Shown here: one piece after another, positions 1 to 6,423 of the stretch
How the letters are laid out: each line of letters opens with the position of its first letter
Numbering within the stretch: the first letter of the stretch is position 1
IMG/VR virus record: IMGVR_UViG_3300014156_000002
Location: 1-53,869 of that record
Source: a virus
Taxonomy: Duplodnaviria > Caudoviricetes
Length of the DNA: 53,869 nucleotides
Reading direction: 5' to 3' (one strand)
Notes under the pieces: model-generated
Databases searched by the model: none
What the model was told of the DNA's origin: nothing
Seen by the model: only the letters and a program-made list of their open reading frames with translations
Translations under genes and position numbers: made by a program

Positions 1-76
1 CCGCGCACAGCGCCGCCCACAGCGCCGCGCACAGCGTCGCGCACAGCGCCGCCCACAGCGCCGTCCACAGCGCCGC
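1..76. repeat. 76-bp terminal direct overlap, identical to 53794-53869 (circular assembly signature)
   Basis: Base-by-base comparison of the first and last 76 nt shows identity. Removing one copy restores the reading frame across the junction. Confidence 0.9.
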
Positions 77-727
77 CCACAGCGCCGCGCACAGCGCCGC
101 CCACAGCGCCGCGCACAGCGTCGCGCACAGCGCCGCCCACAGCGCCGCCCACAGCGCCGCGCACAGCGCCGCCCACAGCGCCGCTCACAGCGTCGCGCAC
201 AGCGTCGCCCACAGCGTCGCGCACAGCGCCGCCCACAGCGTCGTCCACAGCGTCGCCCACAGCGCCGCTCACAGCGTCGCCCACAGCGCCGCCCACAGCG
301 CCGCTCACAGCGTCGTCCACAGCGTCGTCCACAGCGTCGCGCACAGCGCCGCCCACAGCGCCGCGCACAGCGTCGCTCACAGCGTCGCGCACAGCGCCGC
401 TCACAGCGCCGCGCACAGCGCCGCCCACAGCGCCGCGCACAGCGTCGCGCACAGCGCCGCCCACAGCGCCGCTCACAGCGTCGCGCACAGCGTCGCCCAC
501 AGCGTCGCTCACAGCGCCGCCCACAGCGTCGTCCACAGCGTCGCGCACAGCGCCGCCCACAGCGCCGCGCACAGCGTCGCTCACAGCGTCGCTCACAGCG
601 CCGCCCACAGCGTCGCGCACAGCGCCGCCCACAGCGCCGCTCACAGCGTCGCCCACAGCGCCGCGCACAGCGTCGCGCACAGCGTCGTCCACAGCGCCGC
701 GCACAGCGTCGTCCACAGCGCCGCGCA
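1..727. repeat. Coding 12-bp tandem repeat, consensus CACAGCG(C/T)CG(C/T)N
   Basis: About 60 contiguous units. The minus strand reads (G/D)-A-V-(G/R/S/D). The array continues at 53619-53869. Confidence 0.97.
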
Positions 728-995
728 AATTTTTCCGCGAAGCGACCATTGTTCGCTTCGCTATCTCGATCAGCAACGCAGCAATCGGTCCAGCGAGAGA
801 GACGGCAAGAGGCGAGGTTGTCCAAACGATGACCTTTGGTGATTCCAGGCCGGCGAAACGATAGCACTCGCACACTGCGGCCGCAAACTTCTTTCGGTCA
901 GAGTCTCCGGTGCGCAGCCCGATTTCTATCCACCTGTCGGCCCACTCTTCACAGCGCGCCTTTTGCGCCTCTGTCAGCTTGTCGACTCGTTTCAT
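1..995 (-). CDS. N-terminal part of a DUF6745-like repeat protein (continues across the origin into 53793-52773; 671 aa joined)
   Basis: Not in the ORF track. ATG at 995 overlaps the ParB stop (ATGA). Reads MKRVDKLTEAQKARCEEWADRWIEIGLRTGDSDRKKF..., then the GAV/DAV repeat, open to the window edge. Confidence 0.85.
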   Translation of the reverse strand, partial: MKRVDKLTEAQKARCEEWADRWIEIGLRTGDSDRKKFAAAVCECYRFAGLESPKVIVWTTSPLAVSLAGPIAALLIEIAKRTMVASRKNLRGAVDDAVRGAVDDAVRDAVRGAVGDAVSGAVGGAVRDAVGGAVSDAVSDAVRGAVGGAVRDAVDDAVGGAVSDAVGDAVRDAVSGAVGGAVRDAVRGAVGGAVRGAVSGAVRDAVSDAVRGAVGGAVRDAVDDAVDDAVSGAVGGAVGDAVSGAVGDAVDDAVGGAVRDAVGDAVRDAVSGAVGGAVRGAVGGAVGGAVRDAVRGAVGGAVRGAVGGAVDGAVGGAVRDAVRGAVGGAVR

Positions 996-1771
996 ATTTT
1001 CTCTCCCGCCGCTTCAAGAACCTGTTGTGCCAGTGCTTCCATTTTCTCAAATACCAAATCGTCCTTGATGACGTGACGAGCCAAGTCTACAGCGAGAGCA
1101 GAAAGAGTTTTCGATGGCGAGGCGGGCTTCGGCCGCTTCCCTGTCTCGCGGTCGATGTCGGCCTTGGTAACTTTGCCTTTCGTCTCGGCGACGGCAGCCA
1201 GGTTGCGCTGATGCTCTTTGCCTAGCTTGGCGATTTCCTTTGCGGCGGGGCCTTTGATTTTGCCGGCGCGAATCTGCTTCTCGACTTCCGGCGTGGCTTC
1301 GATGAGCGCGAGTCTGCCCTTGACCCATGACTTCGATGTGCGGTACGCCTCGGCGCAATCGTCCTCGGTCATCTGGTAGACATTGATGAGCTGTTGGAGA
1401 TTGTAGGCGTCGTCCATCGGCGTCGTGGGGTTGCGGACGCGGTTCTCTTCGATATTGGCGAGGAAGGCTTGCTGCTCGGTCAGTTGCGTATAAGAGCAGC
1501 GCAGCTCGAGCGGTTCCTTCTCATAGAGCTTGCGCTTGTTAATCTCAGACACCGGCCGCCAGCGGGAGAACCCGGCGACTAGCACGGGCTTGCCCCCGGT
1601 GCGCCGGATCGTCACAGGCTGTAGCTGCCCGTGGCGAAGAATCGAGTCGATGATCCACTGAATATCCGGCAGATCGTGACGCCCGTTCAGCTTCGGATCG
1701 ACATCGATGTGTTGGGGCAGGAAGCGATTCTCGCTTGTGCGGTGACCAGGTACGGTAAATTCGACAGCCAT
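992..1771 (-). CDS. ParB/Srx N-terminal domain protein with HTH-like region
   Basis: SILRHGQLQPVTIR, LVAGFSRWR and ENRVR motifs typical of ParB-like domains; AAGGAA RBS upstream. Confidence 0.85.
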   Translation of the reverse strand: MAVEFTVPGHRTSENRFLPQHIDVDPKLNGRHDLPDIQWIIDSILRHGQLQPVTIRRTGGKPVLVAGFSRWRPVSEINKRKLYEKEPLELRCSYTQLTEQQAFLANIEENRVRNPTTPMDDAYNLQQLINVYQMTEDDCAEAYRTSKSWVKGRLALIEATPEVEKQIRAGKIKGPAAKEIAKLGKEHQRNLAAVAETKGKVTKADIDRETGKRPKPASPSKTLSALAVDLARHVIKDDLVFEKMEALAQQVLEAAGEKI

Positions 1772-1804
1772 GTGGTTCCTTTCGGAGTCTCGGCAGAGAC
1801 TTAT

Positions 1805-1993
1805 CTACTTGGTAAACAGTTGGCGAAGCTCCTCATCGGTGAGCGTGGGACGCCGCCTATCGGCTGGGCCAGAGAGCAGCGCGTCTTCCATACGATCGAT
1901 GAATCGGCTATCCCGGCGAGCTCGCATGAGGCGCAGGACGGAGCCCACGAGGGCGATGGTGGCGAGGGCGACGAGTATCCAGGCGAGGGTCAT
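1805..1993 (-). CDS. Small single-pass membrane protein
   Basis: Hydrophobic N-terminus. Its ATG overlaps the reconstructed native stop of the upstream ATPase. Confidence 0.7.
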   Translation of the reverse strand: MTLAWILVALATIALVGSVLRLMRARRDSRFIDRMEDALLSGPADRRRPTLTDEELRQLFTK

Positions 1994-2000
1994 TGTGTTT

Positions 2001-3178
2001 GGGATTTATATACATGACTCCCTGGGGGTAGCCAGTATACAATTTTGTTTTGAGGCAGCGCTCTCCCCGAGCGCAAGGATGTTGATTGCGGCGTTGTGGT
2101 CGCGGCCCAAAGATAGCCCACAGTGAGGACATTCATGCTGCCGTTGCGCCAACGTCTTTGGGACCTTTTCGCCGCATCCTGAACAGGTTTTGGTTGTGTT
2201 GCGTGGATCGACCGGCACTACCCATTTCCCAGCCTTCTCAGCTTCGGAGTTGAGTGTTTTAACCAGTTGCGCCCACGCAGCGTCAAGAATTGATTTGGCA
2301 AAGCGGGATTGAGCCATGCCACGGATGTTGAGTTTTTCGTGCGCGATTAGGTCGTATTCGGCCACCAGTTGCTTCGCTACGCCCGTCAGATAGGACAAAC
2401 GCAGTCCAGCGATTCGCTGATGGACGCGGCGTACACGCTCCCGGCTATTGGCCCTGTTCTTGCTTCCTTTGACCTTTCTTGCCAAGTCTTGATTGGCAGC
2501 GGCCAATCTATCCTCTTCCTGTTTTGTCCAGCGTGGATTGGCAATCTCCGACCCGTCACTCAATGTAGCGAGTGTTGTCAATCCAACGTCGATGCCGATC
2601 GCGTTGCGCACGGCGATCCTCTCAGGCGCGGGACCGATGTCGCAAACCACTTGCGCCTGCCACTTGGAGCCGCAGCGTTTTACCCGAATCTCTAACGGAT
2701 CGCCTTTGATCTTGCACTTGGTCTTCGTGCGGAAGGTGCCGAGGCGAGTGAGTTTTAACATCCCACCGGAGAAACTGAAACTCCCAGTCGGTACATTGAA
2801 TGAATCGTATCGATCTCGGCTGCGAAAACGAGGGAATCCTGGTTTTTCGCCGCTTTTGATCCTGCGGAAGAATGCTTTGAAGGCGCGGTCGAGACGGCGC
2901 AATGGATCGCGCTGAATCGCCACAGGGAAATTCCCATACTCCTCAATCCCGCCACGCAATTCGGTAAGTTGCGTCTGCTGATTGAGATAGTTCACTGAGA
3001 ATCGTAACTCTCGATAAGCGTTCCGCCTCTGCTGCAACGCCATGTTATACAATTCGCACAACTGCGCAAGAAGACGATGGAGCGTCTCATCTTGCCGCTT
3101 CGTTACTTTCATGCGCATTGTGTATGTCCGGATCACTGGTTTATCGTACCTCAAAAGGGAGTCAAGTATATAAGTCCC
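2001..3178 (-). mobile_element. Non-autonomous TIR-bounded element carrying tnpB, with 8-bp target-site duplication
   Basis: IR 2001-2023 GGGATTTATATACATGACTCCCT vs reverse complement of 3156-3178 GGGACTTATATACTTGACTCCCT (21/23). TTGTGTTT is directly repeated at 1993-2000 and 3179-3186. Confidence 0.9.
2006..3136 (-). CDS. tnpB: TnpB RNA-guided endonuclease (376 aa from GTG 3136), in frame with the upstream ATPase
   Basis: RTYTMRM..LCELYNMALQQR N-terminus, KPGFPRFRS, RuvC-I IGIDVGL, RuvC-II IAHEKLNI, zinc finger CSGC..CPHC, RuvC-III RDHNAAINI. Confidence 0.95.
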   Translation of the reverse strand: MIRTYTMRMKVTKRQDETLHRLLAQLCELYNMALQQRRNAYRELRFSVNYLNQQTQLTELRGGIEEYGNFPVAIQRDPLRRLDRAFKAFFRRIKSGEKPGFPRFRSRDRYDSFNVPTGSFSFSGGMLKLTRLGTFRTKTKCKIKGDPLEIRVKRCGSKWQAQVVCDIGPAPERIAVRNAIGIDVGLTTLATLSDGSEIANPRWTKQEEDRLAAANQDLARKVKGSKNRANSRERVRRVHQRIAGLRLSYLTGVAKQLVAEYDLIAHEKLNIRGMAQSRFAKSILDAAWAQLVKTLNSEAEKAGKWVVPVDPRNTTKTCSGCGEKVPKTLAQRQHECPHCGLSLGRDHNAAINILALGESAASKQNCILATPRESCI

Positions 3179-3850
3179 TTGTGTTTCTCCCATGAGGCGC
3201 ATTTCAAGTTCCATAAGCGCGGCGCGGACGTTTCCGTTCGTTTGCTTGATAATGCGCGCGCAATTCGGGACCGGAGATTCGGATTCGCTCTGCCACACGC
3301 TTTCGAGCAGACGCGCTGCGTCGGGTTGTATTCCGTAGGTTGTGAAGTTGAGCACGCGATTCCGGCTCAGGAACGCCTCGGAGAGCCGGTCTGTATCGGT
3401 GCAAGTGAACACCCAAACGGTGTCGGGAATCGTCTCAGTTCCGTCCAAATAGCTCAGAATCTCAAGCTGGGCAGCTTCGCTCATCTTATGCGCCTCATCG
3501 ATCACGATTACATGGCGCTCGAAGCCTTTTGGCGCGACGTACCAGCACGAATAGGCCACATCGCGGATAGCATCGACTGTACAGCGTCCAGCTCGGATGT
3601 GATGCACGAATCCTTGTACTTCCCGCGCCAGGGAGAGAGCCATCGAAGTCTTCCCCGTGCCAGCCGAGCCCAGGAACACAAACCCGGCATTCGAGGGGCG
3701 CGCAACGAATCCACCCAGCACGCGCTTTACTTCGCTCAAGCCAGCAAAGTCGGCGATGCGCTGGGGCCTGTAACGCTCGGATATCGGCTCAGGGAAAGCG
3801 AGCAGCGGATCAGGTTCCATCTCGGCAAAGAGTAGGGTTTGAGCGCTCAT
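3179..3850 (-). CDS. Clamp-loader/RarA-like AAA+ ATPase; stop codon displaced by the insertion, reads through into TnpB (2006-3850, 614 aa)
   Basis: ERYRPQRIADFAG, Walker A GSAGTGKTS, Walker B IVIDEAH, LSR arginine finger, GNVRAAL sensor 2. Confidence 0.88.
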
Positions 3851-4191
3851 GCGGCCCTCCCGGTGCAGTCGTCGCCATAGTGACCGCAGATCGGACAGAG
3901 ACCAGCGCCGCGCTTAACGTGCTCAGTTGTCGATTGTGTGGGGACGCGGAAATTACGCGAACGGTTGAGCAGCGACCCATCGGCTATCGATCCGATGGTT
4001 CTCCACACTCTAGCATTGTGAGAGATAGGCAGCGTGTCTAGAATGGCCACGATGCCACTGAGTTCGTTCAGGATGGAATCGAAGCGACCTGCGGACAGTT
4101 CCCCGGCTTCGACCTCATTTACAAATCCCCGTAGCCGCGCTTCGCACAGCTTCAGGGACGCTTTCTCTTTGGCTGTCAGTAAAGGGTGCAT
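3847..4191 (-). CDS. Hypothetical protein (114 aa from ATG 4191) with C-terminal CxxC
   Basis: AAGGAG RBS before ATG 4191; stop overlaps the ATPase start. Confidence 0.7.
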   Translation of the reverse strand: MHPLLTAKEKASLKLCEARLRGFVNEVEAGELSAGRFDSILNELSGIVAILDTLPISHNARVWRTIGSIADGSLLNRSRNFRVPTQSTTEHVKRGAGLCPICGHYGDDCTGRAA

Positions 4192-4299
4192 AAGGTGCTC
4201 TCCTTTTCGCTTTCTACTCTGCCACAAGCGCAACGTAGTTACAAGATCACCTTGGTAACATGATTGCTTTTTTTTTCGCAGTGCATCATAGTTACATCC
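4192..4299. promoter_or_regulatory. Divergent promoter/operator region
   Basis: AT-rich gap between divergent genes. Rightward TTGCTT-17-CATAGT (4264-4292), leftward TTGTAA-17-CAGAGT, TAGTTACA present twice. Confidence 0.5.
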
Positions 4300-4611
4300 A
4301 TGCGCGACGTGTTGGCTACATCCACCCCCCCTCTCTCGCCTCTGGAGTTTCGTGAGTATCTGCTTCAGGAGCGTGCGCGGGGCTGCAAATTGCAGGCAAT
4401 TGGCGTGCGATTCGGCGTGTCGCACGTAGCTGTGGGCCACTGGATCGCCGGAAGCCGCAAGCCGAGCAGGACAGCGCTGATCCTGGCTGGCTACTTGGCG
4501 CGCGAGTCTGCCGGCGAGTGGCCGATGGGCGGGAACTTGTCCGTGAAGGGCGGAGGCGACGGCTTTGACGTGCAGGTGACCAAGGTCGGAAAAAATAAAA
4601 AATCTGGTTGA
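4300..4611 (+). CDS. Cro/XRE-like HTH regulator
   Basis: LQAIGVRFGVSHVAVGHWIAGSRKPS helix-turn-helix pattern; located at the divergence point. Confidence 0.75.
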   Translation: MRDVLATSTPPLSPLEFREYLLQERARGCKLQAIGVRFGVSHVAVGHWIAGSRKPSRTALILAGYLARESAGEWPMGGNLSVKGGGDGFDVQVTKVGKNKKSG

Positions 4612-4636
4612 CAAAGCTATGATTATGCACTATGAT
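4608..4636 (+). promoter_or_regulatory. Near-consensus sigma70 promoter with overlapping CTATGATTA direct repeats
   Basis: TTGACA (4608-4613), 17-nt spacer, TATGAT (4631-4636). Confidence 0.8.
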
Positions 4637-4647
4637 TACGTTAAGCT

Positions 4648-4980
4648 ATGAACATCTGCAAAAGGTGCGGGCATGAGTGGCGAGCGAGAAAAGACGGCAA
4701 GCCGGTGCAGTGTCCCGGGTGCAAGAGTCCTTACTGGGACCGGGAGAGAAAGCATGGTAGTGGTGAAGGTGTTGTGCCGGGGGTGCCTGAAGGAGTTGCC
4801 AATTCGGGCCGAAGTTCGTGTAGCGGGAGACGGAAACCTGATGGTGGAGCTACGGGGAGACGAGAGTCAGGAATCGGTTCTAGTCCTCATCGCTTGGCCT
4901 GTCCACGATGCGGAAAAACCGAGTCTGTAAGGCCGTGGGGAAACCAGCACAGGTGCCTCGACTGCAAAACCAATTTCTGA
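4648..4980 (+). CDS. Zinc-ribbon protein
   Basis: CKRCGHEW..CPGCKSPYW and CPRC..CLDC; directly after the promoter. Confidence 0.7.
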   Translation: MNICKRCGHEWRARKDGKPVQCPGCKSPYWDRERKHGSGEGVVPGVPEGVANSGRSSCSGRRKPDGGATGRRESGIGSSPHRLACPRCGKTESVRPWGNQHRCLDCKTNF

Positions 4981-5247
4981 CCGTAAGGGGAGTCATAGGT
5001 GATGGCCAGAGTGTTGCCGATCTAGGGAGAGAAGAGCGAGAACAGGTGGCCGAGCTTAAGGCTGACAACGAGCGGCTTCGCTAACTACTGGCTGAGTATG
5101 CGGATTACCTCGGCGAGCACTGCTGCATCCCAAACACGCCTGCCGGGAAAAGGGCTTGGATGGATGGCGAGATTTCCCATCGAAAAGTGAGTGAGGTCTG
5201 AGCAGAACGTAACACTTTTCCGCATCCAACCAGAGTAGGATATTCGC

Positions 5248-5733
5248 ATGTCTCATCACCACGAGCCCGAGCAGATCAAAAACCATCAGCTTTCCGAATT
5301 GATCTGCCAGAATAAGATCATCATTCGCCTGCTCTCAATCATCGCAGCCGAAGATGCTCCGCCAATCCTCAGCTCCATCCAAATCCAGTTCCAGGAGAAC
5401 ACTATGGCAGCAGTCGCAGGTCCAGTTACACTCACTACCGCAGGCCAGCAGGTCACAGCCTCAGTCCTCGGCTTCGATCAGTTCGGCAATCCATTCACCG
5501 GCACCATGCCCACAGCTACGCTCTCCTCGAGCGACACCGCGCAGGCCGTAGTGACGTTCGATCCCACGACCGGCCTGACCGCGGCGGTTGCCAACGGCAC
5601 AGCCAACATCACCGCTTCGCTGACCACCGCCGAAGGGTTGGCCCTCACCGACACGGAGACGGTCACGGTGGCGATCCCCGTCGTGCCACCTCCCAATCCT
5701 GTTCTGTCGAGCATTAAGGTGGCGTTCGCGTAA
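5248..5733 (+). CDS. Ig-like (Big_2-type) protein with probable second in-frame start at 5404
   Basis: DQFGNP..SSSDTAQAVVT..GLTAAVANGTANITAS pattern. AGGAG RBS before ATG 5404; TAGGAT 6 nt before ATG 5248. Confidence 0.75.
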   Translation: MSHHHEPEQIKNHQLSELICQNKIIIRLLSIIAAEDAPPILSSIQIQFQENTMAAVAGPVTLTTAGQQVTASVLGFDQFGNPFTGTMPTATLSSSDTAQAVVTFDPTTGLTAAVANGTANITASLTTAEGLALTDTETVTVAIPVVPPPNPVLSSIKVAFA

Positions 5734-5766
5734 AACGGTTCCGCATCAGCGGTTCCTGCTCTGCGG

Positions 5767-5800
5767 AAAAAAAGAGGCCCCGGCTATCAACCGGGGCCTT
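5767..5800 (-). terminator. Rho-independent terminator (U tract on the minus strand; possibly bidirectional)
   Basis: AGGCCCCGG-7nt-CCGGGGCCT stem preceded by A7; a second hairpin at about 5739-5768. Confidence 0.65.
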
Positions 5801-6423
5801 GCCTGTGTTTGGGGTAAAGGTGCGGGGCTGCTCCCGAGACGGCTTGGAAGGCCACTGGGAGCGACGGGGATGTGTCGCAGCCCACGGCCCCGCATTGACA
5901 GAATATCCCCCCTGTGCTTCAATTGCAACTGTCGCCGCTCACATTCATGGAAATTTCCCCGACAATTCGGTACGAAAGTTTCCCCGTTAGTTCGTGCGCC
6001 TCGACATCCTGCACGAAAGGCAGGCGGCGGGGGAAGACGTGGTTCGAGCGTCAGTGGACCGCTGGTAGAATCGGGACCAATCGCCTAAATCCGCGAGGAT
6101 AAGCTGAGTGCGCGGGTTCAGCGGTGCTGGCCTGCGTGGTGGTTAAGGCGTCAAACCCATCCACGGCACGAACCCGCCCCCAGGGGAGACTCTGGCCCGT
6201 CGCCCGGCTCCGGCCACGCATGGGAAAAGGCGCTTGGCGATAGCCAGCGGCTAAAGTGCGGCTAACTTCGTGAAAACGGGTTAACCACACCCTTGCCCAT
6301 CACCCTCACCAGCACCGCATAGGCTAGAAATAAAGGTCTTTGAGTGTAAGTGAGACTATTTACTCTTTAGTAAAATCTCTGTCTGGACATGCGGGACCGG
6401 GTTTGGTGGTAATATTTGGGTTC

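Follow-up and report, generated by a model that had tools for sequence, protein, structure and literature searches.

The window analysed here, the whole 53,869-bp IMG/VR virus record IMGVR_UViG_3300014156_000002 (Caudoviricetes), carries a small transposon whose only gene, tnpB, ends inside the right terminal inverted repeat; we found that this repeat has the pairing pattern of the 3′ end of an omega-RNA scaffold, so that the guide for the encoded nuclease would most likely come from the phage DNA beside the element. The element spans 1178 bp (2001-3178, minus strand), is present once in the phage record and, judged by its sequence, is a transposase-less member of the IS1595 family with TnpB and its omega-RNA as sole cargo, non-autonomous because the record encodes no IS1595-type transposase. 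A model in which TnpB takes its guide from the flank and acts on element-free copies of the insertion site is, taken as a whole, probable in our judgement.

The IS1595-type left terminal inverted repeat (3156-3178) and the right one (2001-2023), both recognized on the minus strand by repeat comparison, have arms of 23 nt that are 91% complementary. They are bounded by a perfect 8-bp direct repeat, the target-site duplication, whose left copy lies at 3179-3186 (AAACACAA on the minus strand) and whose right copy lies at 1993-2000 (TTGTGTTT on the plus strand). The left boundary at 3178 is supported by a contig from another sequencing run that departs exactly there and by locus L002; the right boundary is supported by a 97%-identical copy (L002/L003) and by four subtype relatives, in all of which unrelated DNA follows directly after ...AUCCC. 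The subtype comprises the window copy (W), L002, L155, L160 and L166. As the initial annotation of this DNA had it, the tnpB frame closes at 2006 within the repeat: its TAA occupies 2008-2006, 5 nt from the element end.

The terminal repeat as a predicted part of the omega-RNA scaffold

Relatives came from 26 TnpB loci in viral contigs and from a DNA pattern combining scaffold and repeat that matched 10 viral and 16 metagenome stretches, four of these being chance matches; the combined pattern had no match in genome contigs, where TnpB was reached via the repeat alone. Nineteen distinct repeat-bearing 3′ ends were aligned (alignment A1), and pairing was counted in three helices. The first is a stem-1-like hairpin, GCGCUC-GGGGA-GAGCGC (hairpin 1; 2058-2074, minus strand), identified by covariation and fold; the initial annotation had seen it and assigned it to the last codons, but it lies in the coding sequence 17-23 codons upstream of the stop. 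Across the 19 relatives 97.4% of its cells are paired, and three of its six pairs change on both sides. Helix 2, which is found in most relatives and ends in CAGAAU, is paired in 73.1% of cells, with two pairs changing on both sides; in the window subtype it is replaced by UGCCUCAAAACAAAA, an unpaired linker in A1 (2043-2057, minus strand). Helix 3 joins the stretch after CAGAAU or CAAAAU to the inner part of the repeat. In the window, fold and relatives place it in a stem-4-like terminal hairpin (2006-2042, minus strand), with UUGUAUACUGGCUACC as 5′ arm and the inner portion of the right repeat as its pairing partner. The inner portion of this hairpin is out of register between subtypes in A1, so the outer seven pairs were counted, of which 86.5% of cells are paired, and the remainder was taken from single folds; the changes here run from A to G on the 5′ arm with G-U pairs retained, and four relatives have GAAA or GCAA loops.

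None of 500 shuffles matched the observed pairing or covariation score of the three helices jointly. On the sense strand the terminal hairpin folds with a z score of -3.87 (0/200 shuffles as good), and the 76-nt RNA running from 2076 to 2001 folds at -27.3 kcal/mol (z -3.13; 2/200 shuffles as good), against z -1.13 for its antisense strand.

The loop of hairpin 1 (GGGGA, 2068-2064, minus strand) is complementary to AUCCC (2001-2005, minus strand), the last five bases of both element and repeat, and the two would form the 5′ and 3′ strands of a pseudoknot. Over 29 relatives 132/145 loop-tail cells pair, a level reached in 0/10000 trials when tails were shuffled among sequences, although the count is partly circular because we set the tail end ourselves, within about 1 nt, in ten repeat-less relatives; independent tail boundaries are those of the repeat-bearing loci, of L011 and of L010/L020, which diverge right after ACTACCC. 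Pairs were counted by script because the MAFFT alignment of this set (A2) split the tails of the repeat-less relatives. Loop and tail differ in step from locus to locus: a GGGAU loop goes with an AUCCC or GUCCC tail in repeat-bearing loci, GGUAG with CUACC (L010, L020, L021) or UUACC (L018), GGUGU with GCACC (L007), GGCGA with CCGCC (L005), and, in L011 with its distinct 30-bp repeat, GGCAG with UUGCC. Distant TnpB clades with the same repeat (25-38% identity, six bacterial genomes) were included in the test, and 40/48 of their distinct right ends had a hairpin whose loop could pair with the final 4 nt; at the variable repeat base, a tail T faced a loop A in 10 cases and a loop T in 4, a tail A or G faced a loop T in 22, and a tail A faced A in one and C in three.

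We read these patterns as a scaffold that would extend to the element's last base. Because the last five nucleotides covary with the hairpin-1 loop and the inner repeat lies in a helix, the repeat is predicted to be scaffold and not guide, which would make the guide start at the flank.

The same RNA plan, with a matching loop-tail pair, was seen in eight viral contigs (L010, L018, L020, L021, L004, L005, L007 and L012) whose closely related TnpB modules lack both inverted repeats and a visible left end and have a start codon that abuts the gene upstream; in L004 an 8-bp direct repeat, AACAGGAG, lies around the module. L011 holds a TnpB element (about 2890-4105) bounded by another 30-bp inverted repeat (GGGCAATAACATACC...), and its terminus matches its own hairpin-1 loop. 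At L019:3205-3290, and in the same DNA in L111 and L147, there is a solo 3′ omega-RNA part with hairpins 1-3 and the repeat and no gene; it begins ten bases past the right end of one TnpB element and looks like either tandem guide-RNA ends or the remnant of an older copy.

A probable guide from the flank and a base footprint at the insertion

Five near-identical scaffolds of the window subtype are followed by five unrelated right flanks. The guide most likely begins at the right duplication, or one base into it (AAACACAAUGACC...), and would be read from the phage flank; the predicted guide, AAACACAAUGACCCUCGCCU, occupies 1981-2000 on the minus strand, with a start uncertain by 1-2 nt. A guide taken from the flank and starting with the duplication was one of two options in the initial annotation, and the reach of the scaffold to the last base together with the five unrelated flanks lends it partial support.

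A one-sided base preference accompanies TnpB. We picked 75 elements of the repeat family, 15 with TnpB and 60 without, by requiring an exact 8-bp duplication: the base 5′ of the left duplication copy was G in 13/15 TnpB-bearing elements and the same base on the other side was G in 2/15, compared with G on 30/120 sides of the TnpB-free elements (Fisher p=5e-6). In 33 of the 60 TnpB-free elements both sides lack G, so the transposase is unlikely to have a concealed one-sided preference of its own. Among all TnpB-bearing left ends, located with motifs from the window, G stood in this place in 54/63 (24/26 with a duplication and 30/37 without; the nine non-G ends include L004, a false left end), counts that are not phylogenetically independent and to which many copies from six bacterial genomes contribute. 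When these ends were sorted by TnpB identity to the window protein, G was found in 11/11 at 48% or more and was followed by A in 11/11; the corresponding figures were 12/13 and 12/13 at 33-40%, and below 33% G was found in 31/38 with a mixed next base. The first base of the right flank was A in 19/20 window-clade ends versus 36/78 other ends (p=7e-5); the 20 window-clade flanks were read by eye, and L017, L158 and L008 have no row among them.

In the window itself, GGGAG (3187-3191, minus strand) stands directly 5′ of the left duplication copy, with G 3187, at -9 from the left end, in the place of a transposon-adjacent motif (TAM). The empty-site side thus reads GGGAG followed by AAACACAA, and the occupied side AAAUCCC followed by the same AAACACAA. 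The initial annotation had made a flank-derived guide depend on a TAM that tells GGGAG from ATCCC; in its favour, the base directly before the duplication is biased in a strand-specific way towards G (or the motif G-A) at the empty site and is C at the occupied site, which bears out that proposal in part. The first duplicated A (base 2000) could serve both as a TAM base and as the equivalent of the -1A of the ISDra2 omega-RNA, and if it has both roles the first guide base would be 1999.

We propose that the omega-RNA would be transcribed in the same sense as tnpB, across the gene's 3′ end and the right repeat and on into phage DNA, and then processed, with the terminal repeat folded away in the last hairpin (2042-2006) and in the pseudoknot (2005-2001 with the hairpin-1 loop). 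TnpB would be loaded with about 16-20 nt of flank, AAACACAAUGACCCUCGCC..., counted from 2000 or 1999. A permissive target would exist in the uninterrupted site only, where ...GGGAG is followed by AAACACAATGACC (predicted target GGGAG-AAACACAATGACCCTCGCC), the preferred 5′ neighbour being G, or G-A if the first duplicated base is included. As the occupied site is preceded by ...AUCCC, the element would be spared its own cleavage; element-free copies would be cut and repaired from an occupied copy, and the element would by this form of homing be kept or spread.

Weighing the model against its alternatives

Several points weigh against a flank-derived guide, in addition to the tail ends that we set ourselves and the shared ancestry behind the flank counts. 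A fully paired 5-nt loop is sterically tight, and a real pseudoknot may have 3-4 bp. The window subtype is without the hairpin 2 kept by other relatives, so its RNA could be impaired, and an Rfam search over 1700-3400, with E up to 10, gave no omega-RNA-like family. A TAM of one or two bases would be unusually short. No duplication was found at 37/63 TnpB-bearing elements, perhaps, as a guess, through recombination between copies; a separate comparison (duplication present in 3/10 TnpB-bearing versus 8/11 other elements) is too small a sample to use. The predicted empty-site 20-mer was not found in viral contigs, and no joint skipping the element occurred among the contigs of four runs; run X2 has contigs of the phage flanks and of the element in a different context, none of which crosses a junction, and is uninformative on the empty site. 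In one metatranscriptome (X23), contigs lie over parts of tnpB and the left junction and none over 1996-2256, which is uninformative either way. A repeat-adjacent hairpin also stands at the transposase-proximal end of the autonomous elements L049, L056 and L084.

The occurrence of such a hairpin in those three elements, and beside the repeat at one end of L086, which has neither TnpB nor a transposase, led us to drop the terminal hairpin as an adaptation of the TnpB element; it may derive from the transposon rather than from TnpB.

Two other accounts of the footprint, each of which we consider unlikely, leave the guide aside. TnpB, alone or in complex with its RNA, might bias the site or orientation of IS1595 insertion, in which case G-A would reflect target choice and not later retention. 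This would suit a bias that is strong (54/63), orientation-specific (13/15 versus 2/15) and absent from TnpB-free elements, which are presumably served by the same transposases. A new site, however, offers no matching guide, and stable binding of TnpB to DNA is not known in the absence of one; no transposase is encoded beside TnpB in any inspected element, and retention by cutting of the empty site accounts for the bias with known chemistry. Alternatively, the element could be an inert passenger, with TnpB and its RNA inactive in the phage and the bias due to the transposase or to sampling. The missing hairpin 2 of the window subtype would fit this, as would a GTG start that has no clear ribosome-binding site and is in frame with the upstream gene, and metatranscriptome contigs, from one run, that do not reach 1996-2256. 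Against it, the open reading frame (ORF) is intact with all catalytic and zinc residues present, the RNA structure covaries, the subtype has five unrelated right flanks and a 97%-identical protein copy in a different left and right context, and 33/60 TnpB-free controls lack G on both sides.

A guide internal to the element is very improbable. The scaffold would then stop near 2043, at CAAAAU, and be followed by a fixed guide of 16-20 nt (UGUAUACUGGCUACCCCCAG) that travels with the element, an arrangement that would agree with the fall in sequence conservation after CAGAAU/CAAAAU among subtypes and with the close repeat-less relatives L004 and L005, which look unrelated beyond CAGAAU. Yet 18/19 repeat-bearing relatives retain, despite differing arm sequences, a hairpin in which this stretch forms the 5′ arm, and four of them have GAAA or GCAA loops; repeat-less relatives also show a hairpin and then a tail matching their own hairpin-1 loop, and there is no reason for a guide to remain self-paired. 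The second option of the initial annotation takes the inverted repeat as the guide, with other elements' ends as its target. It sits well with the location of the repeat, which is at the extreme 3′ end as expected of a guide, and with a resemblance of the terminal-hairpin 5′ arm to a degenerate left repeat. It is hardly credible, given that the last five nucleotides of the repeat covary with the loop and its inner part is a base-paired helix arm, that a guide of this kind would match both ends of the element that carries it, and that the flank-base bias would go unexplained. The reading that we retain is the one in which the repeat is scaffold and the flank is guide.

The tnpB gene and its protein

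The tnpB gene (2006-3136, minus strand), identified as an ORF and by Pfam and alignment to the ISDra2 protein, encodes 376 aa. GTG 3136 is the most likely start codon, rather than ATG 3118, because homologues begin MIRTYTMRL or MMRTFQFRL. The protein matches Pfam OrfB_IS605 (PF01385, 79.5 bits; cut-off 30.5) and Cas12f1-like_TNB (PF07282, 76.4 bits; cut-off 26.3), and aligns to ISDra2 TnpB with E=5e-49 over residues 4-355. D183, E267 and D346 line up with ISDra2 D191, E278 and D361, and the CxxC...CxxC cysteines with C331, C334, C351 and C354, which Nakagawa et al. (2023) name as zinc cysteines; the alignment upholds the earlier statement that the RuvC D/E/D residues and the zinc finger are intact. 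With RuvC and zinc-ribbon TNB domains, the D/E/D residues, four zinc cysteines and the scaffold structure beside it, the protein was classed as a TnpB, a nuclease of the obligate mobile element-guided activity (OMEGA) type. A likeness between the tnpB start and the duplication (ACACAATG) was rejected as a signal because the N-terminus MIRTYTM is conserved.

In L014, L015, L016 and L019 the elements are longer, with a 47-56-aa ORF between the left end and tnpB; this ORF has a canonical TTGACA-N17 promoter and ends in a TGAATG overlap with tnpB. Two of these small proteins are cysteine-rich, with a weak C2HC zinc-finger match, and one matches NikA-like/RHH.

The insertion site in the phage

The element lies between a phage AAA+ ATPase gene (3179-3850, minus strand; Pfam AAA) and a 62-aa phage ORF (1805-1993, minus strand; ATG 1993-1991), for which no Pfam family matched. 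Without the element and one of the two duplication copies, the sequence becomes a predicted empty site, ...ATGGGAGAAACACAATGACC..., in which the AAA+ gene stops at ..CAATGA, its TGA overlapping the ATG of the 62-aa ORF, and in which GGGAG doubles as a Shine-Dalgarno-like ribosome-binding sequence for that ORF. The insertion splits the AAA+ stop codon, and the frame now runs across the left end and on into tnpB, forming a 614-aa ORF; on the other side, the right duplication copy rebuilds the ATG of the 62-aa ORF 12 nt past the tnpB stop, and the insertion parts this ORF from its GGGAG ribosome-binding site.

A megablast search of 1-6000 against the phage collection gave no match, and the AAA+ protein has no confirmed relative among viral contigs. 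The record carries direct terminal repeats, and at its start (1-730) are about 730 bp of 15-nt tandem units (CACAGCGYCGY-like) that encode a repeated GAV(G/R/S/D)(G/D)AV peptide, the C-terminal end of an open-ended 331-aa ORF (3-995, minus strand). In a 56-nt contig of run X3 (record 15), the left flank of the L002 insertion is fused, through a shared GCCT, to the element's last ~65 nt; the contig is possibly from a deletion derivative that keeps just the terminal hairpin and repeat.

A transposon family with varied cargo

A 15-base pattern of the repeat, scanned in viral contigs, matched at least 118 stretches, and an 18-base version matched at least 120 stretches in bacterial genomes of many phyla and in one archaeal genome. 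Among the matches listed are eleven complete two-ended elements with varied cargo. Two of those with the same repeat, L049 (289 aa) and L056 (311 aa), encode DDE_Tnp_IS1595 transposases (E=6e-33 and 1e-41) with Zn_ribbon_IS1595; L092 has a 104-aa fragment matching Zn_ribbon_IS1595 only, and L070 and L084 encode putative N-terminal look-alikes. Miniature elements of 338 bp and 434 bp share the repeat, and the short derivatives of the family range over 170-450 bp. An 8-bp target-site duplication is typical of IS1595. The IS1595 transposase domain PF12762 had no match in the 53.9-kb record, and an IS200/IS605 identity is ruled out by the 23-nt inverted ends, the 8-bp duplication and the lack of any other gene, including a Y1 TnpA; IS200/IS605 elements have subterminal hairpins at each end and a Y1 TnpA, with neither terminal inverted repeats nor a target duplication.

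In the autonomous L049, L056 and L084 the inner repeat occurs a second time, in inverted orientation, immediately internal to the transposase-proximal end; the resulting hairpin holds a TTGACA promoter box in its loop, and its outward-reading strand pairs better. Among the elements whose flanks show no duplication, where L146 was also entered, L002 and L086 have flanks that are reverse complements over 5 and 9 bases, as if the element were centred in a palindrome. When a TnpB element with these ends was compared with the 3-Mb bacterial genome behind L215 (G001), 60 matches were obtained (74-100% identity), about 25 of them spanning most of the element length; two of the copies in this genome stand tail to tail across one 8-bp sequence (L176/L225).

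Relation to known systems

TnpB is understood mainly from IS605 and IS607 elements, in which excision is scarless and the insertion site provides the TAM. The closest structural comparison is the TnpB of ISDra2 (IS200/IS605; structures 8bf8, 8exa and 8h1j), which shares with the window protein the D/E/D residues, the C4 zinc finger and the alignment described above. In the excerpts of Nakagawa et al. (2023) available, the pseudoknot 5′ strand of the ISDra2 omega-RNA is at -102 to -106 and stem 1 at -116 to -111 and -91 to -86, so that by our reading of the published numbering the strand falls between the stem-1 strands; stem 4 with a tetraloop, a pseudoknot strand at -6 to -2, the -1A and the guide follow. 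The order is the same in the window: hairpin with pseudoknot loop, last hairpin, short tail and guide. The differences are that the host element here lacks a Y1 transposase and is marked by inverted ends and an 8-bp duplication, that the pseudoknot strand is the transposon's terminal repeat, that the scaffold, counted from hairpin 1 onwards, measures about 75 nt compared with 116 nt, and that the apparent flank motif is G or G-A instead of TTGAT.

That TnpB occurs in inverted-end DDE transposons is already in print. Altae-Tran et al. (2023; PMC10691335) describe, in general terms in the main text, DDE-associated TnpB branches with inverted ends; the branches are named DDE-1 to DDE-6, and the element resembles them in carrying, inside an inverted-end transposon, a TnpB gene whose 3′ end is no more than 250 bp from the element end (5 nt here), and in being a solo TnpB that shares ends with transposase-bearing copies. 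That main text does not name IS1595, nor, in the parts available, does it mention a repeat terminus acting as a pseudoknot or a natural flank-base bias. ISL2, IS630 and IS1031 are the families listed for DDE-associated TnpB in the available portion of a 2026 review, and publications naming both IS1595 and TnpB gave no link between the two, going by titles and the start of abstracts. Within the literature searched, which was represented largely by such partial texts, the IS1595 link, the repeat terminus as pseudoknot strand and the flank-base footprint were not found.

A comparable logic of duplication has been described for the Fanzor RNA-guided nucleases of eukaryotic DDE transposons, where, in the excerpts at hand, the TAM includes the 5′ duplication copy, and the 3′ copy falls within the RNA scaffold, ahead of the guide (PMC13565253); here it would apply to the first duplicated base, A. 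The present case is prokaryotic and in a phage, its duplication is 8 bp and variable, so that at most the first base could serve in this way, and the pseudoknot is kept, whereas Fanzor1 is described as having lost it (PMC13565253). With IS1595 elements and their transposase-less derivatives the element has in common the shared repeat, the 8-bp duplications and the existence of short derivatives; it differs in that its cargo is an RNA-guided nuclease whose RNA would fold the repeat in. Free-standing homing endonuclease genes of phages, which spread by intronless homing, as far as the accounts available go, offer a further parallel: a nuclease gene between two conserved phage genes that would cut the allele without the gene and spread by repair at co-infection. 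What would set the element apart from them is target recognition by an RNA copied from the flank, and a transposon able to move the gene.

The rarity of TnpB in prokaryotic DDE transposons has been put down to rigid target recognition, in the available part of a 2026 review (PMC13565253). The features described here give the pairing of TnpB with DDE transposons a testable anatomy, in which the repeat would lie in the scaffold, the guide would come from the duplication and the 5′ motif would be very short, and dozens of insertions bear that short motif as a natural footprint. We raise, as a tentative idea that may well prove wrong, that TnpB and IS1595-type transposons have adapted to one another in phages and in many bacterial phyla: the ..UCCC terminus would be fixed as the guide-proximal pseudoknot strand, nothing more than G or G-A would be needed beside the insertion, the first duplicated base would act as both TAM base and -1 nucleotide, and in phages the result would be a jumping, RNA-guided homing cassette. 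If so, this would be a way for an RNA-guided nuclease to cope with the near-random insertion of a DDE transposon. Should the short motif be a real TAM, the family would offer compact nucleases (about 376 aa) with unusually relaxed targeting, of interest for genome editing; and if the model holds for the phage, it would add an RNA-guided member to the phage homing genes.

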